In this document: piece after piece, positions 13,175 to 59,234 of the stretch
Layout of the letters: every line of letters begins with the position of its first letter
How positions within the stretch are numbered: the first letter of the stretch is position 1
From: Verrucomicrobiia bacterium
GTDB taxonomy: Bacteria > Verrucomicrobiota > Verrucomicrobiia > JADLBR01 > JAIBCM01
Assembly: GCA_019694135.1 (NCBI GenBank)
Contig: JAIBCM010000003.1
Span: 198,626-262,625, forward strand
Length of the DNA: 64,000 nt
Direction of reading: 5' to 3'
The notes under the pieces: model-generated
Database searches by the model: none
What the model was told of the DNA's origin: nothing
Seen by the model: the letters and a program-made list of their open reading frames with translations, nothing else
Position numbers and translations under genes: made by a program

Positions 13175-13372
13175 GCAATTTTCCTTATCTACTAACATTT
13201 TCTTACCTTTTATTTCGTTTCTTTCAAAGTTGGCGAGCCTAAGCAGCCCCAGAGTAATCGTCAACGAAAAAGCCACACTCCCATTGGCATCATATTTTTG
13301 ATTGATGACAAAAGCAGGAGAAACACTGGACAAAAGAAACACTTTCTCACACCCTTCGCTCTTATTTTAAAA

Positions 13373-18104: not shown

Positions 18105-18109
18105 ATGTT

Positions 18110-20099: not shown

Positions 20100-20671
20100 C
20101 TCCCATAAAAACGCGCGCATTGATTTTAAAGCGCCAAAAAACAGGAGAAACCTCCTTGTTAATAACACTTTTAACCAAAGATTATGGACTAAGACAAACC
20201 CTGGCAAAAGGCGCAGCTAAACCGCCCAACCCCCTTGCCGGAATCCTTGATCTTTTTCATGAAATTGAAGTCGTCCTAACCCCTTATCGAACCAGCACAA
20301 AAACTTATCTCAAAGAAGCGCGCCTCATTCAATCTTACTCCGCTTTGCATCGTGACTATCTTAAACTGCAATTAGCCAGTTACTTTGCTCAACTTTATTT
20401 CATCTGCCTGCCGCACGCCCACCAAGCCTCAGATTTATATGAACTCATGCAAAAAGCCTACGATTATCTCGATCATCATCCCGCCTCTTTAACCCTTATG
20501 CAACGTTTTGAAATAGCGTTACTCACTCACTTGGGCCTGGCTCCCACTCCAGAAAAAGGTGCCCTTCAGTATTTTGCTAATGTCTTCGGTCAAAATTTTC
20601 ATCAAATTCCCGAAAAACGAAAAAAACTTCTTTTCACATTGCAAAAAATCGCAACAATGCCGAACCATTAG
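20096..20671 (+). CDS. recO: DNA repair protein RecO (short form)
   Basis: N-terminal OB-fold-like pattern (RALILKRQKTGETSLLITLLTKDYGLRQTLAKGAAK); 4-nt overlap with ybeY stop. Confidence 0.65.
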   Translation: MTPIKTRALILKRQKTGETSLLITLLTKDYGLRQTLAKGAAKPPNPLAGILDLFHEIEVVLTPYRTSTKTYLKEARLIQSYSALHRDYLKLQLASYFAQLYFICLPHAHQASDLYELMQKAYDYLDHHPASLTLMQRFEIALLTHLGLAPTPEKGALQYFANVFGQNFHQIPEKRKKLLFTLQKIATMPNH

Positions 20672-20695
20672 CAATAACAAAGAAAGAAAAAAATT

Positions 20696-21148
20696 ATGGA
20701 AACGAGTCTCATCTTATTAAAACCCGATTGTGTCACCAAAAAATTAACCGGAGAAATCATTCGCCGCTTTGAAACAGCTGGATTCCAAATTCGTGGCTTA
20801 AAAATGATGCGTCTCAACAACGCCATCTTAAAAGAACATTACGCGCATCTCATCGATAAACCTTTTTACCCGGAAATCGAATCCTTCATGCAATCCGCGC
20901 CAGTCGTAGCCCTAGCGCTGTCCGGCGAAAATGTCATTGCCCGCATTCGCGATCTCATCGGCCCTACCGACTCGAAAAAAGCCGCTAAAGGCACTGTTCG
21001 CGGCGATTATGGCGTCGACGTCATGGTTAACATCGTTCACGCCTCGGATTCTTTAGAAAATGCCCAACTCGAACTCAAACGTTTTTTTGCTAACAGCGAA
21101 CTCTTTGATTTCGATCCAGCAAAAGTGCCTGTTGGTTCACAACGATAA
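20696..21148 (+). CDS. ndk: Nucleoside diphosphate kinase
   Basis: LILLKPD, NIVHASDS active-site His motif, about 150 aa. Confidence 0.9.
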   Translation: METSLILLKPDCVTKKLTGEIIRRFETAGFQIRGLKMMRLNNAILKEHYAHLIDKPFYPEIESFMQSAPVVALALSGENVIARIRDLIGPTDSKKAAKGTVRGDYGVDVMVNIVHASDSLENAQLELKRFFANSELFDFDPAKVPVGSQR

Positions 21149-21267
21149 CAATAATTTCTTAACCGCAAAGGGTGCTGAGAAAAGCAGCGCTTAATAACCA
21201 AACCGGTTTTGAAACTTTTTCTTAACTGGCCACATGCTCTGTGTCTTCTGTGGCTATTCGGTTAAAA

Positions 21268-21621
21268 TTATTTCCCAGCTTTAACCGCTTTAAAAATTTC
21301 GCTAAATACTTTGGGTTCGCGCACAGCGATTTCAGCTAAAACTTTGCGATCGAGTTCAATTCCCGATTTTTTCAAAGCTTCAGCAAACCGACTGTAAGTC
21401 GCTCCGAGTTCTCGGCACAAAGCATTCAGGCGAGTAATCCATAACGCGCGAAAATTGCGTTTACGCGTTTTACGATCGCGATAAGCCCAATATTTGCCCT
21501 TCATCTGGGCATCTTTGGCATAACGAAAAAGTTTACTGCGTCTTAAACGATAGCCTTTTGAAGCTTTAAGGACGCGTTTCCTTCTCTCACGAGAAGCTGG
21601 AGCATTAGTGGCACGTGGCAT
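21268..21621 (-). CDS. rplT: 50S ribosomal protein L20
   Basis: Basic 117 aa protein, MPRA...RRKR, typical L20; position in infC-rpmI-rplT operon. Confidence 0.9.
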   Translation of the reverse strand: MPRATNAPASRERRKRVLKASKGYRLRRSKLFRYAKDAQMKGKYWAYRDRKTRKRNFRALWITRLNALCRELGATYSRFAEALKKSGIELDRKVLAEIAVREPKVFSEIFKAVKAGK

Positions 21622-36400: not shown

Positions 36401-37220
36401 TTCCAGCGGCTCCGATCTCAATGGACAAGCCGTGAAAAATGCCTGTGTCATATTGCGCGAACGTTTGACACCCGTGGCAATGAAATTGTTGGAGGAAGAA
36501 TTTCAGCAAAAATCGTCCGGGATCATTTTTGAAGATGGCGAAGTTTATGACAAAAAATTTCCGCACAACAAAATTTCTTTTATCGCTCTGACCCAACGCG
36601 CTTATGTCGAACGCATCAGTTTATCAACCACGGGTTTCTTCGCGACTCCCGGTATTTATATGGACTGGAGCAAGGGCAAAGGAAATCCTTTCCTTTATTT
36701 TGCCTGCGGTGCAGCAGTGACGGAAGTAGAAATCGATAGTTACACGGGCATGAATCGCATTTTGCGAGTCGATATTTTGCATGATGTTGGAAGCTCTCTT
36801 AACGAAGCGGTGGATCGTGGCCAAATCGAAGGTGCGTTTGTTCAAGGCATGGGCTGGTTAACCTGCGAAGAATTAAAATGGGATGATAAAGGCAAGCTCC
36901 TTACTAAATGCGCTAGTACTTATGCAATTCCTGCCATTAGCAACGCACCGATTGAATTTAATGTGAAACTGCTGCCCGATGCGGCACAACACAACACCAT
37001 TCACGGCAGCAAAGCCGTGGGAGAACCACCTCTCATGCTTGCAATTTCTGTGCGTGAAGCGCTTCGTGACGCTATCGCAGCCTTTAGCGAGTCAGGCGAA
37101 CAAATTCCTCTTCCCTCACCCGCTACGAATGAAGCGATTTATTTAACTTTGAAAAATAGGCAAACTTCAAAAAGTAACAAATCTAACAAAGAAAAGAAAT
37201 CTCTTAAAGTCTCTGCTTAA
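33411..37220 (+). CDS. Xanthine dehydrogenase, single-chain (2Fe-2S + FAD + molybdopterin domains fused)
   Basis: N-terminal 2Fe-2S cysteines (CAEGDCGACTV; CGYCTPG), FAD-binding middle, molybdopterin domain with GGGFGGKE; 1269 aa; adjacent to guaD-like and xdhC genes. Confidence 0.85.
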   Translation: MITHQPYHFTLNGKKIQITDESPNLTLLQYLRQNGHIGSKEGCAEGDCGACTVAILERNAKGEASYRAVNSCIMLLPMLAGREVITSEGLACHETLHPVQQAMVANHGSQCGYCTPGFVMSLFEAYYRKDLKQQWQINDQLCGNLCRCTGYRPIRDAAVEVLTGRFKNGVTDPFAERLECVKNESQLAPGQYAPNSKQFFLRPSSLKELLQMIHEFPDARLIAGGTELGVDIAKNFKYHPYLISTEAVGELKTITSTKQEWHIGAAATLTQIEETLQGEIPSIQKMLTVFASRQIRNRATLGGNLVNASPIGDMAPVLLTLDARLIVASMDGEREIPIDQFFLAYRKTALEPREILKSIIIPRQLPGRANSFKVSKRMELDISTVAAAFRVELDDAAQVKTARLAYGGVAATPVRAKKTEQFLLNKAWNRETLTEAMAIIKDEFTPITDARGTADYRRELIPSLLEKFFDEEEFPINYNAITPIPAPAIRPIPHESGHKHVAGTAIYVDDAAEPAGMLEVWPVCSPYAHARIIKRDAHLAKQMPDIVAVLMAEDVPGENDVGAVRHDEILLADKETLYHGHLVALVVGKTQEACRAAAAKVQVEYEPLEPVIDLKKAIAQNMFHTDPHVMERGDAKKVLNNSPNTLVGDFHFGGQEHFYLETHAAWAEPGEDGEMFVSSSTQHPSEIQIVVARVLGVSRHKVVCQSPRMGGGFGGKETQGNTPAALAAIAARKTGKRVRVRLNREQDMILSGKRHPFYAQFKIGFDNEGKLLALQADLFADGGWALDLSQPVADRALFHLDNSYYLPNVRATSRVVKTHIASNTAFRGFGGPQGMLVIEEIMDRIARQLGLPPETVRERNLYHGTGETNTTHYGQVIEDNRLQKIWHELIRSSDFHQRRKQLKQRNAENARFKRGIAITPVKFGISFTLTHMNQAGAFVVIYADGSVQLNHGGTEMGQGLHTKMIAVAVKELGVKVEQIRVMNTSTDKVPNTSPTAASSGSDLNGQAVKNACVILRERLTPVAMKLLEEEFQQKSSGIIFEDGEVYDKKFPHNKISFIALTQRAYVERISLSTTGFFATPGIYMDWSKGKGNPFLYFACGAAVTEVEIDSYTGMNRILRVDILHDVGSSLNEAVDRGQIEGAFVQGMGWLTCEELKWDDKGKLLTKCASTYAIPAISNAPIEFNVKLLPDAAQHNTIHGSKAVGEPPLMLAISVREALRDAIAAFSESGEQIPLPSPATNEAIYLTLKNRQTSKSNKSNKEKKSLKVSA

Positions 37221-38490
37221 CACCCGTAATTTTTTTCTTTTTTTCTTCGCTTTCCTCTTGTTGTTCTTGCTGCTCTTGCTTTTCAGATTCAGGGTCTTTG
37301 AGCAAGGGAGATTTTTGCATTTTATCGATCTGTTCTGCAGTCCAGCGTTTGGCATTTGAAGCAGGATCAAATTCTCTATTAATATTACAAACTGCCATAA
37401 CATTTCTTGCATCTTCGGGCTTTGGCGGGCAAGAGTATTTGTCAGCATGATACGGGTAATGATGATCCTGCGTTAAAACATGACCAATTTCATGAGCTAA
37501 AACGAAAGGCACTTTTGTATCAGACATCACAACATTGTTAATACGATTATCATCAGGACTTTTATCGTTTAAAATCGTGTCTTCCTTGTAAATTTTAGCA
37601 TAAGCTACTGCTATATTATCTTTTGAAGGAGGATCCACCTTATCAAACTTGCCCACATAAAAAACCTGAACATCTCTAGGATTTGGAGTTGCTAATTTAT
37701 CAAATAATACCTTTTCATCGCTTTCGCTGAAACCATCCGATAAATTGACACCCTCCGGAACATCGACAGAAACAATATTGGCATTAATCTTAATCCCAAC
37801 CGATGCATAAATCTCATTAGCCTCTTCAACTTGCCTCTCAACATCTTCTCGGCTCGCCGCTTCTTGACCATCTTTTTTAAGAATATTAATGGTTATATCA
37901 AGTTCTTTAACAATAGGCACTTTAGCTGTGGTTGAAATATTTTTTTCAGGATAATCAACCTTAACTTCACCTCCCAGCATTGTTTGAAAGGTTTGATCGC
38001 ATTGCATCACTTTCTTATCACATTGATTATCTTCAATTTTATTTACAACTACAGCATCATCAATGGCATCAGACGTTAATAATAAGGGTTTCGACTCAAA
38101 AATCCCCGACCCTTCTGCCGTTTCGTTTAAGACAACTTTTCTGTCTTTCTCATCATATTTAGGATTTGGATTTTGAGTGGATAATGTAACATTTATTTGT
38201 TTTTCACCACTTTCATTGATATCTTTCAATCGAATAAAAAACTTATTGTCATCGTTATTGGGATCAAAGGTTGCTTTTCCAGGATTAACTCCATCTTTAG
38301 TTTTTACATAATGAGCTTCAACAAAAGATTTTTCCATGGTCCCCACGTTAAGCTCCTCTGTTGGCTTTTTCTCAGCATCAAGAATTTCTAAAACGGGCGG
38401 ACCAGCAGCAGCTTGAAAAACGGTTTGATTAGAGTTTCGATTGGTTTCGGTTTGTTGAGACGACTCTTCAGGTTTTCTGATTTGTCCCAT
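37204..38490 (-). CDS. Hypothetical protein with HExxH zinc-metallopeptidase-like motif (paralogue of 1623..2873)
   Basis: VLAHEIGHVLTQDHH near C-terminus; EIYASVGIKI block aligns with EIYASQGIKL of the paralogue; Glu/Lys-rich C-terminal tail; no signal peptide. Confidence 0.6.
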   Translation of the reverse strand: MGQIRKPEESSQQTETNRNSNQTVFQAAAGPPVLEILDAEKKPTEELNVGTMEKSFVEAHYVKTKDGVNPGKATFDPNNDDNKFFIRLKDINESGEKQINVTLSTQNPNPKYDEKDRKVVLNETAEGSGIFESKPLLLTSDAIDDAVVVNKIEDNQCDKKVMQCDQTFQTMLGGEVKVDYPEKNISTTAKVPIVKELDITINILKKDGQEAASREDVERQVEEANEIYASVGIKINANIVSVDVPEGVNLSDGFSESDEKVLFDKLATPNPRDVQVFYVGKFDKVDPPSKDNIAVAYAKIYKEDTILNDKSPDDNRINNVVMSDTKVPFVLAHEIGHVLTQDHHYPYHADKYSCPPKPEDARNVMAVCNINREFDPASNAKRWTAEQIDKMQKSPLLKDPESEKQEQQEQQEESEEKKKKITGVKQRL

Positions 38491-43337: not shown

Positions 43338-43814
43338 CTACTCAGGGAAAAATTTTTCAAATTTTACCGTGCCATCTGCCATAACAACGACATTTCCCGA
43401 AGAATATATCTGATTTTTTCCAACAAACAAATAAAGTTGATCTCGATCCTCTGCATAAAAAAAATCTTTAGGACAAACTCCACCATAAAAAAAATCTGGT
43501 AGATCACCTGCTTGATGTTTGGGCTGAGTCGGATCATACCAAGCCTCATCAGGAACACCATAAGCTTTAAGCTGCCTTTGCCACCATTTCATATCACTGG
43601 ACAATTGTTCCGTAGATTTTGCAGTTTCTGGATTCATATCATCAAACATTTTTTGCGCTCCAGAATAAAGTTGTTGAGCACGAGAGAGACACTTGGTTGT
43701 ATTAATGTGCTTACGAAACGTGAAAAATGTGGGTATTGAAATCCCTATCAACAATGCGATTAGAGACATTGTAATTAAAAGTTCTAAAAGAGTAAAAGCC
43801 TTTTGCGATTTCAA
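43338..43814 (-). CDS. Prepilin-type N-terminal cleavage/methylation domain protein (pseudopilin-like)
   Basis: N-terminus KAFTLLELLITMSLIALLIGI matches prepilin leader plus hydrophobic helix. Confidence 0.7.
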   Translation of the reverse strand: MKSQKAFTLLELLITMSLIALLIGISIPTFFTFRKHINTTKCLSRAQQLYSGAQKMFDDMNPETAKSTEQLSSDMKWWQRQLKAYGVPDEAWYDPTQPKHQAGDLPDFFYGGVCPKDFFYAEDRDQLYLFVGKNQIYSSGNVVVMADGTVKFEKFFPE

Positions 43815-43825
43815 ACCTTAAGACA

Positions 43826-44491
43826 TTAACGATAAACTTTCGTTGTGGGAATACCAAAAAAATTCGGAACAGTAGAGATTTTTTTTGCCTCAACTATAAC
43901 ACCTGGGACTGTTTTAGAACTTCTTATAATAGTAACCCCAGTTTGCCTATCAAAATCCACACGCATATTATTGTTATCAGAGGTGTACTCAACGTTACCT
44001 CTCATTATTTTTCCAGGCGCTTTTTTCTGATAAAACATTATTCCTTCAACTAATAATTCAGCTGAAAATCTTTGAATAAATGGAATTTCTACGGGGCCAA
44101 ATGAAAAGGTAATATTCCTATTTTTAGAATCACCTGGTATAGAAATAATATTAGTCCCAGAACCTAGGGTGCTTCCAAAAGGTAAAACCAAAACGGATCC
44201 TCGCGTATTAACTTTTCTTCCCGCAACAAATAAAAACCCTTGCAAAACTCGACCTTCATGAAATCCCAGGGGGCTAAAATTTAAAGTAAAAGTAAAAAGT
44301 CCTCCATTCAAAACAAAAGTAAAACCTTCTCCAGTAGTATCATTAAAAGTAATAGGAATACGTTGTGGTCCAATCATACATTGATAAGTTCCAACAATTT
44401 TAATATCTCGTTCAGCTTGGGCTTTAAGCTGAGTACTGTTAACAAACACTAATGTTAAAACAACAAGTAAAATTATGATTTTTTGTTTCAT
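43826..44491 (-). CDS. Hypothetical secreted protein
   Basis: Signal peptide (MKQKIIILLVVLTLVFVNSTQLKA); no recognised motifs; sits between secretin and prepilin-like genes. Confidence 0.45.
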   Translation of the reverse strand: MKQKIIILLVVLTLVFVNSTQLKAQAERDIKIVGTYQCMIGPQRIPITFNDTTGEGFTFVLNGGLFTFTLNFSPLGFHEGRVLQGFLFVAGRKVNTRGSVLVLPFGSTLGSGTNIISIPGDSKNRNITFSFGPVEIPFIQRFSAELLVEGIMFYQKKAPGKIMRGNVEYTSDNNNMRVDFDRQTGVTIIRSSKTVPGVIVEAKKISTVPNFFGIPTTKVYR

Positions 44492-44495
44492 AGAC

Positions 44496-46892
44496 TTAGC
44501 GGCTTGCAGTTTTTTGTGAAGGTATGACTAATGGTTCAGGTGGATTGACTAATTCTCCTGTTGGCGTAATTAATTTAGGGGTCACAAAAATCACCAAATT
44601 CTTTTTAATCGATTGCTCTACATCTGAACGAAAAAATCGACCTAAAAGAGGAATATCGCCAAGAATGGGAATCTTATCTTTAATTTTTTGAACATCTTCA
44701 CGTAATAAACCGCCTAAAATAACGGTGGACCCATCTTTAACCTGAACACTTGTCTCAATACGTCGAGAATTAAATACTGGCATATTAATAACGTTTTCAG
44801 TTAAAACAAAGGTTTGATCCCCATCAGCTACGGTCATAGGTGTACCATAATTAATAAATCCTTCAAAATCTTCGACCAAAGGAACAAGATTAAGATCAAT
44901 CGTTTGATTATCAGGACCAACCTCCGGGGTGACGTTTAAAATAACACCGACTTCTCTATCAGTAAAATTAGAAGGTTGTGCCGGAGTAATAACAGGCGGC
45001 GGTTGACTAATAAGATTATTAACGTCATTTGCTCCACCACTTGATGTGGTAGGAGGCAATTCAGGAGCATCATAAGTATCAGCATAAGAAAATCGACGAA
45101 CAATTTTTATGGTAGCTTGTTCACCACTACGAGCCACCACTTTCGGCGCTGACAAAAGATCGACTGATTTTTTCTGAGCTAAAGTTCGGATTAAAACATC
45201 AATATTATATTTGGCAATACCCACAGCAAAATTAAAGCTATTGGGTATAGGTCTCGCATCAATACCGTTATTTTGAGAAAGCAAAGCATCGACTGAATTA
45301 GGTTTGATATGAGCCGAACTTCGTAATCCATCAAAATGGTTTAATCCATCCATATCAAGAGGGGAAAAATTACCTGATGGACGAGTATAATTTCCCTCTT
45401 TCACTACGTTCATTGCAATCGAAAGTTCATCAAAATCGGTTTGATTAAGTTCGATAAACTTGGCCTCAATTTCAACCTGAGCAGGAATATCGGTTGGAGA
45501 ACCAACTAAGGCATCAATGAGCTCCAAATTAGCCGGAGAATTTCGAACAGTCAATTTACTGGACGCTGAAGAATAAGAAGCGCTAGCGCCTTCAGGAAAA
45601 GTAACACCTCGTGATTCTAAAACTTTTCGAATATCGGTTTCTCGCTCAAATTGCACTTTTTCCATAAGAGAACGACTAAAAGATCTTCGTGTGCGAGAAC
45701 CCCCTTGTTGTTCTCCACCCGTTTCAACATTAAAAAAGTCTGGTTTAACACGATACTCTTTGGTCAATAACTGATCGGTTGGCGCTGTTAAAGGAAGAAT
45801 ACTCACCGAAAACTCATCCATTTGATATTTTAAATTGGCTAAACGCGTCGCATAACGAATGACTTCCTCTAAAGGAACACTCTGAAGATTTAATGTTACC
45901 TCAGATCCCATTGAGTCAGGAGTTAAACGCGAAACAAAATTAATACCCTTTCTTTCGGGATCGAGTTCTTTACTTTTTACATTGAGAAAATCAATAACAT
46001 CTAAAATGCTAGCTCGATCAAAAGCTACTTGAGGCAGAATAATCGTTTTTAATTTTCTGCTAAGATTTTCTACATTGGAACGTGTTAAAGGGGCATTGGC
46101 AAAAATTCCGGAATCCGAAATCACATCTTTGGGAATGGGCATTTCCCATTTTTCAGTAACTTCAGTCATGCCTTGAAAACGAGCTACTTCTTGAGCTTTT
46201 TTAGCATAACGCAACTTATGATCTAACACCTTATCTAATCGCTTACGTGCCGTGCTATTGAAAGGATCGATCGTCAAAATTTGCTGATATTTTTTCTCTG
46301 CCTCATCAAATTGAGCCGTGTCCAATAAATCATCACCCTCTTGCAACAAAGTATTCACATCTGCCACATCTTTTAAATAACGCGGAGTAATAGCAGGATT
46401 ATCACGTTCAATCATGGGCTTACCCTCTTGATCTAAAGCAATACCCATCGCAGCATACAAACTCGCTCGCTCTGCTTGAATGCGAGAATCTTTAGGCGCA
46501 AAAGATAACGCTTCATCAGCATTCGCTCTAGCTTCATCCAAAAGGTTGGCTTTTAAATTTTCATGAGCTAATTGTATCAAGGCAACGGCTGCCCCATCAT
46601 AAGCCTTATTTTGCAACGGCGCGGTCGCCGGAGAAGGAGCCGGTAAAAGAGCTACAATCGCACGATATTTTTCTAAAGCTTCTTTATAACCTTGCGCTTC
46701 TAACAAAGCATTTCCCTCTCTGAGTAAAGCAGTTCCTCGAATCACAGCTTGTTGACGCTTTAATACTGCAGTTTGAGAAGCTTTTTGTGCGCTGATATAA
46801 TCGGACTGATCAACATTCCCATTCCCTAGCAAAGCCAAAGGTGCTATACCTAATAAAAAGAAACAAAAAATTTTATAATAACAAAGTTTCAT
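44496..46892 (-). CDS. Secretin-family outer-membrane channel protein (PilQ/GspD-like), copy 2
   Basis: C-terminal secretin signature (VILGGLLREDVQKIKDKIPILGDIPLLGRFFRS); signal peptide; TPR-like N-terminal region. Confidence 0.8.
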   Translation of the reverse strand: MKLCYYKIFCFFLLGIAPLALLGNGNVDQSDYISAQKASQTAVLKRQQAVIRGTALLREGNALLEAQGYKEALEKYRAIVALLPAPSPATAPLQNKAYDGAAVALIQLAHENLKANLLDEARANADEALSFAPKDSRIQAERASLYAAMGIALDQEGKPMIERDNPAITPRYLKDVADVNTLLQEGDDLLDTAQFDEAEKKYQQILTIDPFNSTARKRLDKVLDHKLRYAKKAQEVARFQGMTEVTEKWEMPIPKDVISDSGIFANAPLTRSNVENLSRKLKTIILPQVAFDRASILDVIDFLNVKSKELDPERKGINFVSRLTPDSMGSEVTLNLQSVPLEEVIRYATRLANLKYQMDEFSVSILPLTAPTDQLLTKEYRVKPDFFNVETGGEQQGGSRTRRSFSRSLMEKVQFERETDIRKVLESRGVTFPEGASASYSSASSKLTVRNSPANLELIDALVGSPTDIPAQVEIEAKFIELNQTDFDELSIAMNVVKEGNYTRPSGNFSPLDMDGLNHFDGLRSSAHIKPNSVDALLSQNNGIDARPIPNSFNFAVGIAKYNIDVLIRTLAQKKSVDLLSAPKVVARSGEQATIKIVRRFSYADTYDAPELPPTTSSGGANDVNNLISQPPPVITPAQPSNFTDREVGVILNVTPEVGPDNQTIDLNLVPLVEDFEGFINYGTPMTVADGDQTFVLTENVINMPVFNSRRIETSVQVKDGSTVILGGLLREDVQKIKDKIPILGDIPLLGRFFRSDVEQSIKKNLVIFVTPKLITPTGELVNPPEPLVIPSQKTASR

Positions 46893-49454
46893 TTATTTCA
46901 TCCTTCCCTGAGGCTCATTTACTATCCTCAACTCCTGAGGCTCTTGAGTCGAATCCCAACGAGGAACCTCAGCAAAAGTAGGATTATTATCAAAGCTTTG
47001 TGTATCTTCAAAATTACGTTTATTAAAAAGTTCTCCATCAGATCGAATCAAATTACAGGTAACAAAAATCAACAGATTCTTTTTAATGCTTTGATCAATT
47101 TTCGAACGGAAAAGACGCCCTAATAATGGTAAATCGCCCAGTAAAGGAATTTTATCATCAACTTTTTGAATGTCTTCCCGGATTAATCCACCTAATAAAA
47201 CTGTTTGACCATCTTCAATACTCAATCGCGTTTTAACCTCTCGATAATTAAAAACAGGTGTGTTAATAATATTATCAGCGACTTTAACTGCTTGAGACGT
47301 TCCCAAGTCTAAAGCATTAATAGGATTTCCATAATTAATGAATCCTTCAAAATCGACAACTCTAGGTGTTAACTGAAGATCAATCGTTTGATTATCAGGA
47401 TAAAGTTGAGGATTGACCGTCAAAATGACGCCGATCTGCTCATTTTTAAAAGTCGAAGGAGTTGAAGGAGTCACAGCACGGTAGCCATTTCCACTCGGCA
47501 ACTGTGAAATAGACGCATCAATTTGAGGTGGCTCAATAGCTTGAGGATCAGGATAAAAAAAGTCGCGAGCAATACGAATTTCAGCATCTTGAGAAGGTTT
47601 AGTGACTACTTTGGGCACAGCTAAAAGATCAGCACCCGTTTTTTGTGAAAGCGCATAAACTAACAATTCAAACTTATACTTACTTAATGAAATCGCACTT
47701 TGAAACGCTGTTCCTAAAGGCCCTGCAAAAGCGGTAGCGGCTCCTGCTAATAAAGCATCAAAAGTATTAGCATTAATAGCATTTCCTCCCACTGCTAAAT
47801 CTACCGGTAATCCCAAAACCTCCGTTGAAGCCGAAGGAGCTGAAGTTCTTAAACCAGGAGTATCAGTTGGAGCCGATTGAGAACGTCCTCTTCGATTAAT
47901 ATTCCAACGGAAAGAAAGCTCATCCAAATCAGTCTGATTCACCTCCATAAAACGAGTTTCGATTTGAACCTGAGGAACTTCCTGACTTTCCGAACTAATC
48001 ACACTTTCAATCAAAGCTAAATTATCCAATGTATTTCGAACTACGAGCAAACTTCCATTCGACAAATAATTAGCCGAGGAGCCGGGAGGAAATTGAACAC
48101 CATAAGTTTCTAATTTTGTCTTCACTTCTTCACGAGCAATATTGACTGATTCACTTAACGTGCCACCGTCCTTGCTCTCAATTTTCGCGCCAATAAAACC
48201 CGCTGGCACTTGGAACGTGCGAGTAAATAACGCCTCAATATTTTCTGAAGCCGGCGCCACTAAAACTGCATATTCCTCCACTTTATAGATCAAATCCGCT
48301 TGTTTTGCGATAAGATCCAAAACCGCGGCCAAAGGCAAATTTTCTAAGTTCAAAGTAATGCGACGCGCATCAATCGTTTCAATCGAAACCTGCTCGCCAG
48401 CGCTCGGTTGACTTTCTGCAGCATCTGAAACAGTTGCAATCGTGGTCTTCAAAACAAAATTCAAACCTTGCCCAGTCGGATCTAACTCTTTGGATTTAGC
48501 CTGTAAAAAAGTCACCGCTTCTTCCACCGATGCTTCGTCAAAATTAATTTTATCAATAATAATATTGTTTAACTTTTCCTCAATACGTGCCGTATTCGAC
48601 AAACTCGCAGCAGAAACACTTCTCTCTTCGCGAGGCTTCAAAATATTACGATTCACCGGATTACTCCAAGCTTTCGTCACTTCATAAAGCATTTCTTTAC
48701 GACTATTCTCTTTAGCATCTTTGGCATATTTCAAACGCAGTTGAGAAACTCGCTTCAAACCGTCCTGTGCAGCCTTATTATAAGGATCAATCGCCAAAAC
48801 CTTTTTAAAGTTTTCTTCTGACTTAATATATTGCCCAGTTTCGCGCTGTTTTTCGCCTAAATCCAAAAGCCGTTTCACTTCTCCAACAGCTTGCACAAAC
48901 TCAGGTGTCACTGCAGAATTGGGCTCAATTACCAATCCCTCACCCGATTGTTTTTGAATCGTCTTAGCAAGTTTCTGCAACTCCTTATCTTCAGGAGAAT
49001 AAGCTAACGCCTCAGAAACATAGCCTCCTGCTGTCTGAAATTTTCGCGTTTCCAAAGCCTCCTCAGCCAAACGCATATTAGCCATCGTCAACCCCTCAGC
49101 CGCAGCCTGATAAAGATCGAAAGTATTCGTTGTCATCGGCAAATTCTGCAAAACAAAACGATAACGATCCGCTGCAGAAACATATTCTTTAGCGGAATAA
49201 AGCTGTTCGCCTTCCACTAAAGCTTTTTTGCTGCCAGTAAAAAGTTTTTGTCGTCGCGCTGTTTCATTTTGCAAAGCGCGATCAACTGCTGCATTTTCAG
49301 CATAAACCATGTTTTGCGTCAAAAAAATGGAACCTAAGAAAAAACCAAGACAAAAGAAACGATTGCTACCCTTCAATCTCATAAAGTAAGTCGATAGTGA
49401 ATAGAGCCTTTCTTGAATGCAAGAATTAATTTCCCTTATTTTTAAAATATTCAA
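46893..49454 (-). CDS. Secretin-family outer-membrane channel protein (PilQ/GspD-like), copy 1
   Basis: C-terminal secretin signature (VLLGGLIREDIQKVDDKIPLLGDLPLLGRLFRS); paralogous throughout to copy 2; start possibly the internal Met before the hydrophobic segment. Confidence 0.8.
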   Translation of the reverse strand: MNILKIREINSCIQERLYSLSTYFMRLKGSNRFFCLGFFLGSIFLTQNMVYAENAAVDRALQNETARRQKLFTGSKKALVEGEQLYSAKEYVSAADRYRFVLQNLPMTTNTFDLYQAAAEGLTMANMRLAEEALETRKFQTAGGYVSEALAYSPEDKELQKLAKTIQKQSGEGLVIEPNSAVTPEFVQAVGEVKRLLDLGEKQRETGQYIKSEENFKKVLAIDPYNKAAQDGLKRVSQLRLKYAKDAKENSRKEMLYEVTKAWSNPVNRNILKPREERSVSAASLSNTARIEEKLNNIIIDKINFDEASVEEAVTFLQAKSKELDPTGQGLNFVLKTTIATVSDAAESQPSAGEQVSIETIDARRITLNLENLPLAAVLDLIAKQADLIYKVEEYAVLVAPASENIEALFTRTFQVPAGFIGAKIESKDGGTLSESVNIAREEVKTKLETYGVQFPPGSSANYLSNGSLLVVRNTLDNLALIESVISSESQEVPQVQIETRFMEVNQTDLDELSFRWNINRRGRSQSAPTDTPGLRTSAPSASTEVLGLPVDLAVGGNAINANTFDALLAGAATAFAGPLGTAFQSAISLSKYKFELLVYALSQKTGADLLAVPKVVTKPSQDAEIRIARDFFYPDPQAIEPPQIDASISQLPSGNGYRAVTPSTPSTFKNEQIGVILTVNPQLYPDNQTIDLQLTPRVVDFEGFINYGNPINALDLGTSQAVKVADNIINTPVFNYREVKTRLSIEDGQTVLLGGLIREDIQKVDDKIPLLGDLPLLGRLFRSKIDQSIKKNLLIFVTCNLIRSDGELFNKRNFEDTQSFDNNPTFAEVPRWDSTQEPQELRIVNEPQGRMK

Positions 49455-49460
49455 AATTAA

Positions 49461-50426
49461 TTATTGACTTGGAATCTGTAGCATTTCCTTTTCCGTGCCA
49501 TCTTCCGATAAAGCCATAATCTCCGCACCGGTTTCACTCAAATTTTTCACGCGATAATTTATTCCGCGAAACGTAATCTCTTGAGCTTTTTCTACAGGAT
49601 AATTTTTATTTTCTAATAAATCTACCAACGTTCCCGTTAAAATGGGCGCATCCGACACCTGTTTCATTACCAACGTTAAACGTTCGCCTGTCACCTCATT
49701 CACCACGTCCAACTCCGATTCATCATAAGGCAACATCACTCCTTGCATTTTAGGATTTTCTCGTTCCCCTTTTTTCTCGCGATATTCTTCCACTCGCCAA
49801 TCTTCAAACTTATCACCTTTTTTCACAGAATTGGAACGATGTCTTCGATCGCGCGGATGGGAAAGCTTGACTTGGAAAAATGTCTGTCCTCCCACTTCGT
49901 TGACCCCAGTAAACTCCAGCGAATACGGTTTCGCCTCAAAATTCGTCAAACGCAATTTCGTTGTAAAAGGGGGATGCGATTCCGCCTTCAAGGGATCCGT
50001 CTTGCCCAAATACTCATCCTTATTCGTAAAACCATCTTTATCGGGATCCTGATCTGCGACGGTTGGATCACTCAGACTAAAACCATACTGTTCTTTCCAC
50101 AATGGCGCAATCCCATCAACCCCCGCTTCATCAGGTCGATACAATTTCAACTTACGCTCATCCGCCAACCATTCCAACTTTCGAGAAATAAACAAACGAT
50201 GCCCATTCTCAGCAGCCTTCCACTCCTCATTTTGATCCAACTCTTTTCCCAAATCTTGATATTGATCCAAATCCTCACGGACCTTTGCATTGCCACCCAA
50301 CACTTCCGCCACCGCTTGGGGAGGAGCTGTAGAAAAAGACAACGCTTTAAAAATGGCGACGCCCAATAAAATTAACAACACGCTAAACAACAACGTCCAT
50401 TCAATATTTTTTTTTGCCCAATTCAT
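49461..50426 (-). CDS. Hypothetical membrane-anchored protein (possible PilP-like component)
   Basis: N-terminal TM helix; position between pilO-like gene and secretin; assignment by context only. Confidence 0.4.
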   Translation of the reverse strand: MNWAKKNIEWTLLFSVLLILLGVAIFKALSFSTAPPQAVAEVLGGNAKVREDLDQYQDLGKELDQNEEWKAAENGHRLFISRKLEWLADERKLKLYRPDEAGVDGIAPLWKEQYGFSLSDPTVADQDPDKDGFTNKDEYLGKTDPLKAESHPPFTTKLRLTNFEAKPYSLEFTGVNEVGGQTFFQVKLSHPRDRRHRSNSVKKGDKFEDWRVEEYREKKGERENPKMQGVMLPYDESELDVVNEVTGERLTLVMKQVSDAPILTGTLVDLLENKNYPVEKAQEITFRGINYRVKNLSETGAEIMALSEDGTEKEMLQIPSQ

Positions 50427-51394
50427 TTTTTAACACTCACATTTTCATCACTCTGCCAATTAATATAATCAATTCTCATCGTAATGCGAATCGTCTCCTC
50501 ACCTAAAATCAAATTAGCCGCCACACTTTTAGGACCTTCCGAAGTTGCGCCCTTAGTCTTCAAATCCTCTACTGTCGGCGGTTCCCCTCGTTCATTAATA
50601 ACCTCCAAAGAACGCACTATCCAAAAAGGCTGAGCGCCATTTTCCTGGCCTTCCCCACCTCTTTCATTCAAAGCATCCACAATTTTTCTCAAACTCGTAT
50701 CCGTTCCGACAAATTGAAAAACAAATGGAAGAGTTCGATAAAAAAGCCCTTCGCGATCCAATGACATAGCGGGCAACAACTCTCCCAACTCCCCCTCACT
50801 TCCACGCACAGGTTGTCGAGTTGCTGCGGCCGCTCCAGAACTTTGGGTTAGCAAATCTTCCACAGGCAAACGCGACACACTCTTTAACTCATTAATTCCC
50901 GATTCAAATAACAACTGCGTCAACCGCTCAATAATTCTCAACTCTTGCGTTAAAAACACCGTCGCCTCCGGCGCTGGAATACTGGTTAAATAGCGACCAA
51001 ACCCAAACGAAAAATTTTCTGGTAATGTAACAGGATTTCTTGCCTTTTGCGCCATCTCCACCAAACGATCGCGCGTATTGCGAAATTCCGTTTGAAAATC
51101 GATCGGATTCAAAGCCTCGCCTTGAATTTGTCCCTGCTTCAATTCAGCAATAGCCGGCTGTAAATAACTTTCCAACTGCTGCGCCTTCTCCTGATAAACT
51201 TTCGTATTGGCCTCACTCGGAAACACCGATTGCCCACGATAACGCGATAACGTCATCGCCTGCGACTCCAAATCCGTATTCAACGAACTCACCCGTTGCC
51301 CTTCATGCCACCAAAAATAACCGCCCACTGCACTAATCACTATCGCCACCAACAGCGCCTGAGAAGTTTCACGATTTTTCTTAAACCAATCCAT
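50423..51394 (-). CDS. PilO-like pilus assembly protein (putative)
   Basis: N-terminal TM helix followed by coiled-coil-like region; follows pilM-pilN fusion; 4-nt overlap with downstream gene. Confidence 0.45.
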   Translation of the reverse strand: MDWFKKNRETSQALLVAIVISAVGGYFWWHEGQRVSSLNTDLESQAMTLSRYRGQSVFPSEANTKVYQEKAQQLESYLQPAIAELKQGQIQGEALNPIDFQTEFRNTRDRLVEMAQKARNPVTLPENFSFGFGRYLTSIPAPEATVFLTQELRIIERLTQLLFESGINELKSVSRLPVEDLLTQSSGAAAATRQPVRGSEGELGELLPAMSLDREGLFYRTLPFVFQFVGTDTSLRKIVDALNERGGEGQENGAQPFWIVRSLEVINERGEPPTVEDLKTKGATSEGPKSVAANLILGEETIRITMRIDYINWQSDENVSVKK

Positions 51395-51423
51395 ATTACT
51401 TTTTTCTCATTTCTCTATTTTTC

Positions 51424-53205
51424 TTAAGGCACCAAAGGAATCGGCGTCTTTAGCTTTGCCTTAATTTTAAAATTCAATGCCAACCGCTTTTCTTCCACCG
51501 AAACCACATCTACCGTCACCAACTTGGGATCGGCTATATCCTGCTCTGTCATCGCAAAAAATTGAGATTGCGGAAATTTCTTCAAAAAATTACCAATCAC
51601 TTCCTGTCCATCAATTCGCAAATCCGGCGTTTGCAAATCAGCCGGATTAATATTTTCATACGACCCCTCAATCAATAAATGCGTGATCTGCGTCGCATCC
51701 GCAGCAGCAGACTGAGGCTTGCCCGTAGTGCGCTTGGGCGGCGCTGTAATCGGACTCACCACCATCGGCAACTCCCGATCATCAAAAGCCGGTTTCAAAG
51801 CAGTAATCCAGACTCCCACAGGAATCATCGTATTTAACTCCTTCAACAAACCTGGCCAATAACGACGCATCTTAATTAAGCCATCAATCTGCTCCGCCTC
51901 ACTCAAAGCCTTCTCATATCGCGTCTGCACTGCTTTCAACTCACGATTCGCCGACTCCAAAGTGCCTACCTCGCCCGAAATCGTTGCTAACTGCGCTTGC
52001 AAAATATTTCCTTTACGCCAATGACTCGCCCATAGCACCCCAAACAAAACCACCAAAGCCGCCGCCAATGCCACTTGCAAACTGCGTCTTTTTCCCGAAG
52101 CTCGTGACGCCTCAACACTTGCCGGCACCAAATTAATATCTAACGGACAAGGCCCTGTTGCATGCAACGCCAAACCCACCGTCTCGCCCAACCAAGCCGC
52201 CGAACGCACCAACGTCTCACGCGAAATCGAAGGGGCCACAGCCACATTCCGTAAAGGATTAAAAAATTCAATTGGCACACGCAACTTTTCCGAAAAGAAA
52301 AGATCCATATAAGCCAACAAACTCGATCCACCAGTTAACAAAATTCGCATCGGAGCGCTGCCCCCTTGTTGACTGCGATAAGACACGATCGAACGCGACA
52401 CTTCTGAATGCAAACGCGTTAAAATGCCGCGAATCACCTTGGAAATGCGGGCCGCCGTTGCATCATCGGGATCTGCATAAGCGCCACCTAACCCCACAAA
52501 CCCTTTTTCCTGCTTCAACTGCTCTGCTTCAGCAAACGACAATTGCATATCCGTTGCAATCGCCTGAGTAATCTGATTGCCACCAATCGGCACACCACGA
52601 ATGAAAATTTTACCATCTTCCGCAAAAATGAGTTGAGTCGATTTCGCGCCAATATCTAAAATCAACGTGCAACCTTCATAATCGGGATAATTAAAACGAA
52701 ACGCATTATAAAGCGATAAAGGTCCCACGCCTACACGCTCCGCAACACAACCCGTCGCGCTCACCCCCGAATTGATACGATCCAACATCTCTGCCTTAAT
52801 CGCAACAATCACGGCCTCCAAATCCGAATTCTTCACCGATTGAACTAACTGATAATCCCACACCACTTGATCCATGGGGAAAGGAACATTCTGTTGCGCT
52901 TCAAAGCGCACCATCTGCGTAACCTGCTCAGGAGCTGAAGGAGGCAACTTCACAAAACGCGTAAAAACCGATTGACCCGAAATACAATAATAAATCGAAG
53001 TGCCTTGACTTATCTTGCCCGTCAAAACCCGCCGCAACACATTGGCAACAGCTTTCTCTCGCTCCTCTTCCGAGGCTCCTTCCAACGCAATTGTCTCAAT
53101 GACTGCCCCCTCCAACAATAAGCCACCCGCTGTAGAACTATAAAAACCCACACTAATACTGTGGCTACCTAAATTAATCGCAATTACCCTACCGCTTTTA
53201 CTCAT
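51424..53205 (-). CDS. pilM: Type IV pilus assembly protein PilM fused to PilN-like domain
   Basis: Actin-like ATPase N-terminal part (IAINLGSHSISVG...); internal TM helix (LQVALAAALVVLFGVLWA) preceded by LDINLVP PilN-type start; 593 aa. Confidence 0.7.
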   Translation of the reverse strand: MSKSGRVIAINLGSHSISVGFYSSTAGGLLLEGAVIETIALEGASEEEREKAVANVLRRVLTGKISQGTSIYYCISGQSVFTRFVKLPPSAPEQVTQMVRFEAQQNVPFPMDQVVWDYQLVQSVKNSDLEAVIVAIKAEMLDRINSGVSATGCVAERVGVGPLSLYNAFRFNYPDYEGCTLILDIGAKSTQLIFAEDGKIFIRGVPIGGNQITQAIATDMQLSFAEAEQLKQEKGFVGLGGAYADPDDATAARISKVIRGILTRLHSEVSRSIVSYRSQQGGSAPMRILLTGGSSLLAYMDLFFSEKLRVPIEFFNPLRNVAVAPSISRETLVRSAAWLGETVGLALHATGPCPLDINLVPASVEASRASGKRRSLQVALAAALVVLFGVLWASHWRKGNILQAQLATISGEVGTLESANRELKAVQTRYEKALSEAEQIDGLIKMRRYWPGLLKELNTMIPVGVWITALKPAFDDRELPMVVSPITAPPKRTTGKPQSAAADATQITHLLIEGSYENINPADLQTPDLRIDGQEVIGNFLKKFPQSQFFAMTEQDIADPKLVTVDVVSVEEKRLALNFKIKAKLKTPIPLVP

Positions 53206-53252
53206 CGTTTCTCCAAGACTATTTTCAAAACCATTTCAAAAAAATGATGCCA

Positions 53253-54032
53253 TTAAGGACTGTTTGTCTCCATCATAGTAGTCACCTCCGGTCGAGGCAA
53301 AGGCGCCGTCATGCGAGGCATCGCGCTACTACCACCACTACCCGACTCTCTTAAAGGCGGATAATGTTCCCAATAATCCATCGCCCAAGGCGTCTTCGTA
53401 ATTGGCATTAACACCCCTGTCTTACCACCTTTTAAAAACCAGTCTGCTTCCGCCACCCGCTCAGCGCGACGTGTCTCCGCCCAAGACACTCGCTTTCCAT
53501 CTACAAACACTTCCGCTGCCATCGCTGACTGCTTAAAAGCTTGTTCTCCGCCATACATTTCCACCTGAAACGGCGACAAATAAGCCGAAGCAAAATAACC
53601 TTCGCCCAAAGCCAAAGGCCCGTAATGCAATTCTATCGACAAAACTTCCTGATCCAAATCCTGCGGCCGTTGCGGCTGCGGCGTTAAAAGATGAAGCTTC
53701 ACCATCACATCCTGAAAAAAACCGCCCCCCGGCTGCTCCAACTCTTCCCGAGACAATCGCGGATTCAAACTATATTCCACCTCAACTTCCAACCATTTCA
53801 TACGCGGCCCTCTTAAAGGATCCGAAGGCCGTTTCAATTCCACAGCATTCACACCACGTTTCGGCGTTTCAACAAATTCTATTTTAATATTATTAGGTTT
53901 AATCTCAAACCCTGGCACCTGGTCAAAATTTTCCTGATCAGAAAAAGGCATTGGATCTTGAGGCTCTTGTCCTCCTACCACCATACAACTCCCTACCAAT
54001 GCCGCTACTAAGATAAAAAAGTGTCGGCTCAT
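53253..54032 (-). CDS. Hypothetical secreted protein, first gene of the pilus-like locus
   Basis: Signal peptide (MSRHFFILVAALVGSCMVVG); Pro/Gln-rich; no recognised motifs. Confidence 0.4.
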   Translation of the reverse strand: MSRHFFILVAALVGSCMVVGGQEPQDPMPFSDQENFDQVPGFEIKPNNIKIEFVETPKRGVNAVELKRPSDPLRGPRMKWLEVEVEYSLNPRLSREELEQPGGGFFQDVMVKLHLLTPQPQRPQDLDQEVLSIELHYGPLALGEGYFASAYLSPFQVEMYGGEQAFKQSAMAAEVFVDGKRVSWAETRRAERVAEADWFLKGGKTGVLMPITKTPWAMDYWEHYPPLRESGSGGSSAMPRMTAPLPRPEVTTMMETNSP

Positions 54033-56354: not shown

Positions 56355-57746
56355 TTACCAAGGACTAGGCATCCCCCAACCCTTAGTCTGAGCAGCTTCA
56401 CCAGCAATCCTAGCAGGTTCTTGAAAAGCTTGGCGGAGTTTATCGCCAGCTGGCCTGACCAAATGTTCATTGGCTAGTTCAGCTCCTTTACCAACAGCCG
56501 GGGCTACCATCTCTCCCACCTTACCACCCGCTGCTATGCCTGTTTTTACTACTGGTACAACCACAGGAGCAACTACATGCTCTGCTACAGGCAACACCAC
56601 GTGGTCAACTGCTGCATCTACTGCCGGGTTAATGGCATAACAAAGTCCTACAGTCTCCACACAATCAGCTACATCAATCACATCAAGAGCGGCCTCTCCT
56701 AATTCAGCCCCCCTCTTTAACGCTTCTCTAGCCACCACACCCGCTCCCAAAGGATGCTCTCGACCAGACGGCTCTGGCTCTTCAGAAACCTGACTCACGT
56801 AAGCCACACCGCTTACCACAACAATCTTTTCAGATTTTGCCAGATAATTCCTAGATCTTGATTCGAGACTATTCAACAACTTATAGAAACATGCATCCGC
56901 CTCACGATAATCGTCCCAAGCTTGACGAAGTCTATCCGTATTTGGCTTTATTTGGGTATTGCCTAACTCTTCTGATAGAACACGTGAAAAAATTTCCAAT
57001 TTCTCATTCTGATTAATAGTAACCTGTAAAAATTCGTCAAAATACTCAGCCAAAGCTTTAGCTTCAGCAGCAAGTTCACGACTAGCCTTACTAGGATTTA
57101 ATGCTGCAATCTCATTAGCATGATGCAAAGCTTCTTTAGATATCTTATTCATTTCTTTCATAGAATGAATGAAACCTTTATTATCAGATATTATTCCTCC
57201 TACATCACTCAAAATATCGTTCCAAAAATAAATTTCTTCAGATGAATGAATTTTTTTTGGGGCTTTTGGGGCAATCGAAGATGATGGATCACCAAAATAA
57301 TTATCCATTCTTTTTCTGATGCTCGCCAAAGCCTTAATGTAGGAAAAATCAAAACCCCTAACTCCTCTATTAAATTCATGTCCAGCCTGAGCTAAACGAG
57401 CAGCGTGATAATAAGGCTTATCAACATGGCTCGCAAGCCTAGCGAATCGTGCCTTTTTATAAGCTTCTTGAGCCTCTTGAATTCCATAAAGATCTTTATA
57501 TGCTTCATCACAAGCATGATTAGCTTCTAAGAAAGCTTTTTCATTTTCTGGAGTAGAATCGGCTCGAAATCTTTGTTTCGCCAGAGTCATCTGGTCATGC
57601 GCTTCGTATGCTAGCTTATGAGCCTCTTCCAATTCCTCTGCAGCAAAGGGTGGGATCTCTATCTCTCTAGGCTTCGAACCGCTAATCCTATCCCAAGCAT
57701 CACCAAGTTTTCTTCTCCAACCACTTTTGCTACCACCTTTACCCAT
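56355..57746 (-). CDS. Hypothetical Ala-rich protein, compositionally atypical
   Basis: 463 aa, no recognised catalytic motifs; N-terminus MGKGGSKSGWRRK; codon usage looks different from neighbours by eye (frequent CTAG); flanked by repeat loci. Confidence 0.5.
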   Translation of the reverse strand: MGKGGSKSGWRRKLGDAWDRISGSKPREIEIPPFAAEELEEAHKLAYEAHDQMTLAKQRFRADSTPENEKAFLEANHACDEAYKDLYGIQEAQEAYKKARFARLASHVDKPYYHAARLAQAGHEFNRGVRGFDFSYIKALASIRKRMDNYFGDPSSSIAPKAPKKIHSSEEIYFWNDILSDVGGIISDNKGFIHSMKEMNKISKEALHHANEIAALNPSKASRELAAEAKALAEYFDEFLQVTINQNEKLEIFSRVLSEELGNTQIKPNTDRLRQAWDDYREADACFYKLLNSLESRSRNYLAKSEKIVVVSGVAYVSQVSEEPEPSGREHPLGAGVVAREALKRGAELGEAALDVIDVADCVETVGLCYAINPAVDAAVDHVVLPVAEHVVAPVVVPVVKTGIAAGGKVGEMVAPAVGKGAELANEHLVRPAGDKLRQAFQEPARIAGEAAQTKGWGMPSPW

Positions 57747-57983: not shown

Positions 57984-59234
57984 ATGAAAATCCAAATTAG
58001 CCTTTTACTTCTTTTTATCGGCCTCTGCCAATCGACCTGGAGCGCAATCAATGACAACTTTGCAAACCGCATCCCGCTCGTAGGTCTTCCGGTTACGGCT
58101 CAACTCCTAACCAACACCGACGCCACTGTCGAAGCCGGCGAACCTCAACATGCGGGTCTCGCTGACACCACCAACTCCGTCTGGTGGACCTGGACAGCGC
58201 CTGCTAATGGCGATTACGCTTTTTTAACCCTAGGCAGCGATTTCGATACCGTGCTTGCGCTTTATGAAGGAAACGCCGTCAACATGCTTACTACTTTAGC
58301 CTCGAATAATGATGCCAATTTAGGTGGCACTAACATCGTTAAACGCAGCTATCTTCATCTTAATCTAACCAATAGCCAAACCGTCCAAATCGCAGTATCC
58401 GGCACGGGCCCTGATAAAAGTAATAAAGGCCAAATCAAACTACAAATTGCCCAACGCCCGATTAATGACGATTTTGCCAATGCTCAACCCCTTTCCGGCC
58501 CCACACTTACCACAAACGCCACCACCCTTGGCGCTTCCAAAGAATCGAGCGAACCTCAACTTCAACCCACCGCCCCCGGCAGCGCTTCAATCTGGTGGCA
58601 ATGGTCGCCCCCCACCAACGGCTCTTATGTCGTCTCAACAGAAGGCACAGGTTTTGACTCTCTCTTAGGCGTTTACACCGGCAACTCACTCAACGCACTC
58701 ACACAAATACTACGCGCCAATAACACCAGCTCCAACTTAAACGAAATCGCATCCTTCCAAGCCGATGCTAACACAACTTACTTTATTACCGTCGATGGCA
58801 ATGGACCACTGCAATTCGGCAATGTCGTCCTTAGCATTTATCCAGGAGCCGTCGAAAATTTTATTGACCCGAATCTGCTGGGTTTGGAAATCTCAATTCG
58901 CGCCCCTAAAAACGATGGAAAAACTTATAAAAAACGTGCCAGACGTGGCGTTCGAGCCCGAGCCAAATTCGTAGACACCACCGGCACCAACACCATCAAA
59001 AAAATTGAATACGCCGTCGTCAGTGGCACCAATTTAACCAACAGCGCCATTCCTAATCCTTTCATCAGCTTCGAAAAAGTTAAAATTCGTAAAAAAGGTA
59101 AAGTAGCTCGCGGTCGCACCACCATCGCATCCAACCTACCCAGTGGCGAAGTTCGCTTGGAAGTGCGCGCAGTCATCAACGACACCAACACCACCAGCAC
59201 CGTGAAACGAACATTTAATTTGATTCGAAAGTAG
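57984..59234 (+). CDS. Secreted protein with two tandem internal repeats of about 130 aa
   Basis: Signal peptide (MKIQISLLLLFIGLCQSTWSA); repeats start INDNFANRIPL... and INDDFANAQPL..., each with W-x-W and G-x-Y...FD..L..Y blocks; basic C-terminal region. Confidence 0.6.
   Translation: MKIQISLLLLFIGLCQSTWSAINDNFANRIPLVGLPVTAQLLTNTDATVEAGEPQHAGLADTTNSVWWTWTAPANGDYAFLTLGSDFDTVLALYEGNAVNMLTTLASNNDANLGGTNIVKRSYLHLNLTNSQTVQIAVSGTGPDKSNKGQIKLQIAQRPINDDFANAQPLSGPTLTTNATTLGASKESSEPQLQPTAPGSASIWWQWSPPTNGSYVVSTEGTGFDSLLGVYTGNSLNALTQILRANNTSSNLNEIASFQADANTTYFITVDGNGPLQFGNVVLSIYPGAVENFIDPNLLGLEISIRAPKNDGKTYKKRARRGVRARAKFVDTTGTNTIKKIEYAVVSGTNLTNSAIPNPFISFEKVKIRKKGKVARGRTTIASNLPSGEVRLEVRAVINDTNTTSTVKRTFNLIRK

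Follow-up and report, generated by a model that had tools for sequence, protein, structure and literature searches.

A distant, doubled-secretin member of the Amuc_1098–Amuc_1102 type IV pilus-like gene cluster in a Verrucomicrobiia bacterium

The window analysed here is a stretch of 64,000 nucleotides (64 kb) from a Verrucomicrobiia bacterium (GenBank assembly GCA_019694135.1, contig JAIBCM010000003.1, positions 198,626–262,625 of the forward strand), and its open reading frame (ORF) listing contains eight consecutive minus-strand ORFs, g1–g8, spanning positions 43338–54032. This locus probably encodes the part of a type IV filament machine that spans the envelope but holds no motor. The machine would be of the Amuc_1098–Amuc_1102 (MUL2) type known from Akkermansia and would be driven in trans by pilB, pilT and pilC gene products. 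A first-pass annotation, made from the sequence alone, had described a type IV pilus-like envelope locus that lacks an ATPase and has a non-canonical composition; the first part of this description holds, whereas the second overstates the oddity of the locus, whose gene order matches the curated Amuc_1098–1102 cluster. The core belongs, as a distant member, to a cluster type that is already curated and was surveyed recently, and the lack of an ATPase is ordinary for it. What is uncommon lies at the 3′ end: two ancient secretin paralogues, whose order is the same in three lineages, a β-barrel protein restricted to its lineage, and a prepilin.

The Amuc_1098–1102 proteins are abundant in the Akkermansia cell envelope (Ottman 2017). 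Segers and de Vos (2023) refer to their genes as a type IV pili cluster, in which Amuc_1098 is PilQ. Amuc_1099–1102 have also been termed MUL2, in which Amuc_1102 resembles an archaeal type IV pilin and Amuc_1101 is PilM, and MUL2 synteny is conserved across Akkermansiaceae and often in other Verrucomicrobiales (Wilkie 2026, ISME J). MUL2 is needed for mucin handling in Akkermansia.

NCBIfam holds a dedicated model for each of the five Akkermansia muciniphila proteins, and all five models were matched by window proteins, in cluster order and on one strand as in Akkermansia. Profile hidden Markov model (HMM) annotation, which the first-pass annotation had put forward as a check on the unknown members, places g1–g6 in the Amuc_1102–Amuc_1098 families. 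The second gene, g2 (51424–53205; 593 aa), aligns end to end with Amuc_1101_fam (NF045709; residues 1–591 against model positions 1–607 of 608) at 539 bits, which is below the cutoff of 650 and therefore marks it as a family relative and not an equivalog. Its product consists of an actin-like cytoplasmic PilM domain (residues ~1–350), one transmembrane helix (~376–396) and a periplasmic tail, an architecture that bears out the PilM–PilN fusion proposed in the first reading and resembles the ~600 aa fusion of the Akkermansia cluster. The PilM domain matches Pfam PilM_2 (PF11104; E = 1.2e-31, profile positions 2–338 of 340) and scores 130.8 bits with TIGR01175 (pilM), just under the cutoff of 133; two distant relatives of g2 carry a precomputed PilN match (PF05137). 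The identical GenBank protein is named 'pilus assembly protein PilM'.

The two weakest links, g1 and g3, were retested with profiles built from the syntenic ORFs of related loci, because the NCBIfam scores were mostly below cutoff. g1 (53253–54032; 259 aa), which has a signal peptide at its N-terminus and possibly a lipobox (LVGSC), reaches 38.5 bits with Amuc_1102_rel (NF042424; cutoff 55). Searched alone against the PDB with phmmer it finds 7DSZ (Amuc_1102) at E = 2.2e-4, and a profile of ten ORFs lying upstream of PilM genes finds the same entry at E = 2.9e-21, placing an Amuc_1102-family gene directly upstream of the PilM gene in the window. g3 (50423–51394; 323 aa), a bitopic protein with an N-terminal transmembrane helix, reaches 118 bits with Amuc_1100_fam (NF038287; cutoff 180), and its family profile matches the Amuc_1100 structures 6LAD and 6KNY (E ~2e-28) over profile positions 33–310 of 315. 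A GenBank protein identical to g3 (MBX7157874.1) is already named 'Amuc_1100 family pilus-like protein'. Pfam scans of ten g3-family relatives gave weak, sub-threshold T2SSM_b matches in three and a weak PilN match in one, and the PilO family (PF04350) matched neither g3 nor nine relatives.

The fourth gene, g4 (49461–50426; 321 aa), scores above the family cutoff (Amuc_1099_fam, NF042425; 114.8 bits against 50), and a GenBank protein that clusters with it at ≥90% identity, encoded on the same contig as the proteins identical to g2 and g3, still bears the name 'hypothetical protein K1X66_05760'. In an AlphaFold2 model computed from a 60-sequence alignment (pLDDT 85), g4 has an N-terminal transmembrane helix, a linker, a DxDxDGF..E motif and β-rich C-terminal domains, one of which may resemble the PilP/GspC-HR fold, with PilP among the top fold matches. 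The Pfam scan of 60 Amuc_1099-family members gave TSP3_bac only, with no PilP or GspC signal. The TSP3_bac matches, found in 27 of the 60, fall on the DxDxDGF..E motif, which is of the TSP3-like, Ca2+-type and is invariant in the family (residues 127–138 in g4), suggesting that the periplasmic linker contains a calcium-dependent element. We know of no PilP or GspC protein with a TSP3-like Ca2+-binding motif. The core is completed by the secretin genes g5 and g6, both of which match Amuc_1098_fam and are described below; as in Akkermansia, the Amuc_1100- and Amuc_1099-like proteins are bitopic and the secretins have a long N-terminal region containing TPR repeats.

This arrangement is widespread. 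More than 5,500 relatives of g2 were detected, nearly all of ~580–600 aa, and at least 586 loci carry a fusion of the g2 type when one genome is taken per GTDB species; most of the record titles name Verrucomicrobiota, many of them metagenome-assembled genomes (MAGs) of Chthoniobacterales. Gene order was compared in 80 loci (L001–L080) from different GTDB species, and most of them have the order PilMN, Amuc_1100-like, Amuc_1099-like, secretin. Dozens of Chthoniobacterales MAGs are among the genomes with this order, whereas a published survey reports MUL2 as 'less conserved' in Chthoniobacterales (PMC13174399), a mismatch that may reflect detection sensitivity. Upstream of PilM, the Amuc_1102-like gene has often diverged too far for a pairwise search; it was aligned in all ten loci sampled, including one (L006) in which the pairwise search had missed it, and the joint profile matches 7DSZ.

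The window itself encodes no recognizable motor, as the first-pass annotation had stated for PilB/PilT-type ATPases and the platform protein. No Walker A motif of the GspE/PilB/PilT type is present in any frame of the 64 kb, the only P-loop motifs in window ORFs being those of a PhoH-like and a RecG-like protein and a motif match in a CHAP-domain ORF, and the PilB, PilT and PilC proteins of a related locus matched none of the window ORFs at E ≤ 10. The pilMNOPQ operon is normally separate from pilBCD and pilTU, for example in P. aeruginosa, Neisseria and Myxococcus. The published Akkermansia cluster also lists no ATPase (Ottman 2017; Segers and de Vos 2023). On both grounds, the absence of an ATPase from the locus is expected.

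Most of the related loci also have no motor gene within 10 kb. Eight of them (L004, L005, L006, L008, L009, L011, L023 and L027), however, carry PilB- and/or PilT-sized ORFs with a GPTGSGKT Walker A motif 2–5 kb beyond the secretin. The downstream, convergent motor genes of L006 were confirmed with Pfam as pilT (T2SSE), pilB (T2SSE and MshEN) and pilC (T2SSF), and this set beside the cluster ties the Amuc-type cluster family to a standard motor. The same eight loci with adjacent PilB-/PilT-like ORFs have no detectable Amuc_1099 homologue. At L006 (motor region 17203–21334), an unrelated 271-aa ORF (12742–13557) that has no Pfam match takes the position that separates the Amuc_1100-like gene from the secretin gene.

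In terms of characterized machines, Amuc_1101 can be read as filling the slot of PilM plus PilN, or of GspL; Amuc_1100 that of PilO or GspM; Amuc_1099 that of PilP or GspC; and Amuc_1098 that of the secretin, PilQ or GspD. The type II secretion system (T2SS) terms GspL, GspM, GspC and GspD fit the fused, transmembrane-anchored architecture better. With the type IVa PilMNOPQ complexes of P. aeruginosa, Neisseria, Myxococcus and Thermus the locus shares the sequence of functional slots, from an actin-like PilM through a bitopic pair and a protein with a putative secretin-binding β-domain to a secretin. It departs from them in that PilM and PilN are fused, whereas the type IVa systems have separate PF05137 and PF04350 proteins; in giving no sequence match to the PilO or PilP Pfam families; in the transmembrane anchor and TSP3-like Ca-binding motif of the PilP-like g4; in secretins with TPR N-terminal regions and low PilQ scores; and in the extra upstream Amuc_1102-like gene and the doubled secretin.

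A machine of the following kind would be consistent with these assignments. The PilM domain, fused to its PilN-like membrane and periplasmic segment, would pair with the Amuc_1100-like bitopic protein in the inner membrane. The transmembrane-anchored Amuc_1099-like protein would span the periplasm, and its putative HR-like β-domain would dock on the secretin ring's N-terminal domains. The outer-membrane channel would be made of the two secretins, which would share a mixed ring or build two alternative ones. Accessory or filament roles would fall to the Amuc_1102-like, β-barrel and prepilin proteins, while another locus would supply in trans the PilC platform, the prepilin peptidase and the ATPases for extension and retraction.

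The same slots can be read as a T2SS-like exporter, in which the PilM–PilN fusion would be GspL, the Amuc_1100-like protein GspM, the Amuc_1099-like protein GspC, the secretins GspD and the prepilin a pseudopilin, and folded proteins such as glycan-degrading enzymes would be pushed out through the secretin. This is the strongest rival explanation, although we regard it as unlikely. The domain layout is nearer to the T2SS than to the type IVa pilus, with PilM- and PilN-like parts in one polypeptide as in GspL, and both the weak T2SSM_b matches in three of ten Amuc_1100-family relatives and the equal scores of GspD and PilQ models on both secretins point the same way. The cytoplasmic domain, however, matches PilM (PF11104, and TIGR01175 to within about two bits of its cutoff), and no GspL (T2SSL) match was obtained; the GspD scores are far below cutoff, and no PDZ match to Pfam was reported for the GspC-like g4. 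The locus lacks the gspG–K pseudopilin set as well as gspE and gspF, and the window has no gspE or gspF homologue. In addition, related loci, of which L006 is the example, have a PilT-like second ATPase beside PilB and PilC. To our knowledge, no classical T2SS has a retraction ATPase. Finally, the Akkermansia papers describe pili and a pilus-located Amuc_1100.

The most conspicuous departure from the Akkermansia cluster, which has a single secretin, is the presence here of two secretin paralogues. In the first-pass annotation the chain was credited with two secretins and one prepilin, and Pfam agrees, identifying two Secretin-domain proteins and one N_methyl prepilin. g5 (secretin A, 46893–49454) is 853 aa long from a TTG start, its true start probably being M25 at ~49382, which gives a signal peptide; it has a TPR-like N-terminal region and a C-terminal secretin domain (Pfam Secretin, E = 1.4e-32) and matches Amuc_1098_fam at 597.5 bits over model positions 20–804 of 805. 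g6 (secretin B, 44496–46892; 798 aa) combines a Secretin domain (E = 7.9e-36) with TPR_2 in its N-terminal region (E = 4.7e-7) and matches the same model over its full length at 622 bits, the cutoff being 750. Pfam reported no AMIN domain in either protein, their N-terminal regions matching TPR repeats instead, and both remain well below the cutoffs of the PilQ model TIGR02515 (124–129 bits against 284) and of the GspD model TIGR02517 (124–130 bits against 351).

The two secretins are 35% identical over their full length. The orthologues of g5 are the first-position secretins of two related loci, L003 and L081 (46–49% identity), and those of g6 are the second-position secretins of the same loci (45–51%), whereas first- and second-position secretins of the three loci are 33–37% identical. 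Since each copy has its own same-position orthologues in both L003 and L081, the pair is ancient and both copies have been maintained. The possibility that g6 is a recent or decaying duplicate was considered and rejected, both proteins being full length and having their own orthologues, 45–51% identical for g6, in the same order in two other lineages. Among the related loci that could be assessed, the secretin is tandem in seven and single in 40. A neighbour-joining tree suggests that the secretin was duplicated independently at least twice, and probably three times. Our literature search found no paper on paired secretins in one operon. In an independent tandem-secretin lineage (L033, L044, L078 and L080; ~18.8–20.8 kb), a dephospho-CoA kinase-like ORF comes after the second secretin gene, with a likely rho gene next in line, as read from N-terminal sequences only. 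A dephospho-CoA kinase gene and rho are also the neighbours reported for Akkermansiaceae MUL2 loci.

Beyond the secretins, the locus has a β-barrel gene and a prepilin gene that the Akkermansia cluster lacks. The first-pass annotation counted two secreted proteins of unknown function in the chain; of these, g1 is the Amuc_1102 homologue, and g7 (43826–44491; 221 aa) is truly unannotated. g7 belongs to a small, lineage-restricted family and is predicted to be an all-β up-and-down barrel. An HMM of the g7 family found no members in other tandem-secretin loci, so the barrel protein is not a general companion of secretin duplication. We also considered g7 as a second Amuc_1102-like protein; this was dropped, as it gave no sequence match to Amuc_1102_rel (NCBIfam) or 7DSZ (PDB) and its model is a long-stranded barrel. 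The family alignment ends in an invariant K-x-x-R (for example KVYR or KIRR), whereas an aromatic last residue is expected in typical outer-membrane barrel proteins.

The last gene, g8 (43338–43814; 158 aa), carries the sole prepilin motif found by a motif scan of the window. Its N-terminus, MKSQKA|FTLLELL, has Ala and not Gly at position −1 and Glu at +5, and it matches Pfam N_methyl (E = 3.9e-7) and TIGR02532 (23.5 bits, above the cutoff of 16.3). Syntenic homologues are present at L003 (E = 7e-11) and at L084/L086. One could go further and propose that g5 and g6 form an obligate hetero-oligomeric outer-membrane ring or a two-channel assembly, with g7 as a dedicated outer-membrane partner and g8 as the cognate pilus or pseudopilus subunit, a proposal that we consider doubtful. 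If true, it would represent a mixed-ring or two-channel secretin architecture undescribed for type IV pili or the T2SS, possibly for polymer uptake and not fibre export. The doubled secretin, the β-barrel protein and the terminal pilin-like gene are the real departures from the Akkermansia and classical layouts.

A self-contained, ATPase-independent envelope structure, such as a static pore for glycan import that is built on a secretin and tethered to the inner membrane, appears highly improbable. It would account for the lack of a motor or platform gene in the 64 kb and in the 10 kb around most related loci, and a 2025 review ties the MUL genes, which encode pili and periplasmic complexes, to the intracellular accumulation of mucin degradation products, for which they are required, and not to motility. 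The separation of pilMNOPQ from its motor genes being the norm, however, absence from the window proves little, and pilB/pilT-type genes do lie beside the cluster in eight related loci, with pilC confirmed in L006. In characterized systems PilM connects to the PilB/PilC motor, which speaks against a static pore. The retained prepilin gene would likewise require a prepilin peptidase and an assembly ATPase. Equally remote is a DNA-uptake (competence) pilus whose secretin would admit DNA: the best NCBIfam matches of the g8 N-terminus are ComGC and ComGE and the secretins weakly match HofQ 'DNA uptake porin' models, but all of these matches are far below cutoff and reach no further than the generic prepilin helix or secretin domain, no obvious comEA-, comEC- or dprA-like ORF was seen in the window translations when these were inspected by eye and not by HMM, and what has been connected with the Akkermansia homologue of the cluster is mucin use and surface signalling rather than transformation.

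Several considerations weigh against the preferred interpretation of the locus as the motor-less envelope part of a type IV filament machine. The presence of pilB, pilT, pilC and pilD elsewhere in this genome is an assumption. Four of the five family matches are below the NCBI equivalog cutoffs, which makes the proteins distant relatives whose function may have drifted. The placement of g3 as a putative PilO/GspM-like partner of the PilN part draws on a review's account of the Amuc_1100 crystal structure together with the weak, sub-threshold Pfam matches. The only prepilin, g8, has Ala at −1 and is no more than a candidate filament subunit, and the operon structure is read from gene spacing only.

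As to that spacing, the gene chain was found as the first-pass annotation had drawn it, all eight minus-strand ORFs being present at 43338–54032, and its remark on overlapping or abutting junctions is likewise correct. From g1 to g8 the intergenic gaps are 47, 29, −4, 6, 0, 4 and 11 nt; the start of g4 overlaps the stop of g3 by 4 nt, and g6 abuts g5. These short gaps suggest that g1–g8 are co-transcribed. The next gene downstream of g8 on the same strand encodes an RluD-like pseudouridine synthase, a neighbour that differs from the coaE–rho pair of Akkermansiaceae and of other tandem- and single-secretin loci. As it is only 19 nt away, the end of the operon is not marked by spacing. Scans for promoter and terminator consensus sites gave no more sites than shuffled sequence and are uninformative either way.

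The G+C content shifts within and around the locus, from 0.37–0.39 across the secretin genes (44–48 kb) to 0.45–0.48 in the stretch that holds the PilM gene, the Amuc_1102-like gene and the upstream permease gene (50–56 kb). Upstream of the locus and this permease gene lie two ORFs without a Pfam match (56355–57746, minus strand, and 57984–59234, plus strand); one is 463 aa long, and the other, of 416 aa, is secreted and has an internally repeated N-terminal half. Elsewhere in the window, a pair of paralogous ORFs (1623–2873, plus strand, 416 aa, and 37204–38490, minus strand, 428 aa) is 29% identical over the N-terminal ~250 aa. Each contains an HExxH motif and matches Reprolysin_5 (M12 metallopeptidase) weakly and below cutoff; one has an EF-hand-like match, and neither has an obvious signal peptide.

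The Amuc_1098–1102 cluster is biomedically prominent, Amuc_1100 being the best-studied effector protein of Akkermansia, and the machine that it encodes is a candidate pilus, secretion system or glycan-uptake device. For annotation, the lack of a nearby ATPase is what one should expect of this type of operon and is not a sign of an incomplete or exotic system. The host of the present locus is an environmental MAG and not a gut mucin specialist; by analogy with the Akkermansia genetics reported in the papers cited above, the machine is likely to help the cell attach to complex glycans or particles or acquire them. Its doubled-secretin variant, with a private β-barrel protein, constitutes a natural experiment on secretin stoichiometry that would be usable given a cultured carrier.

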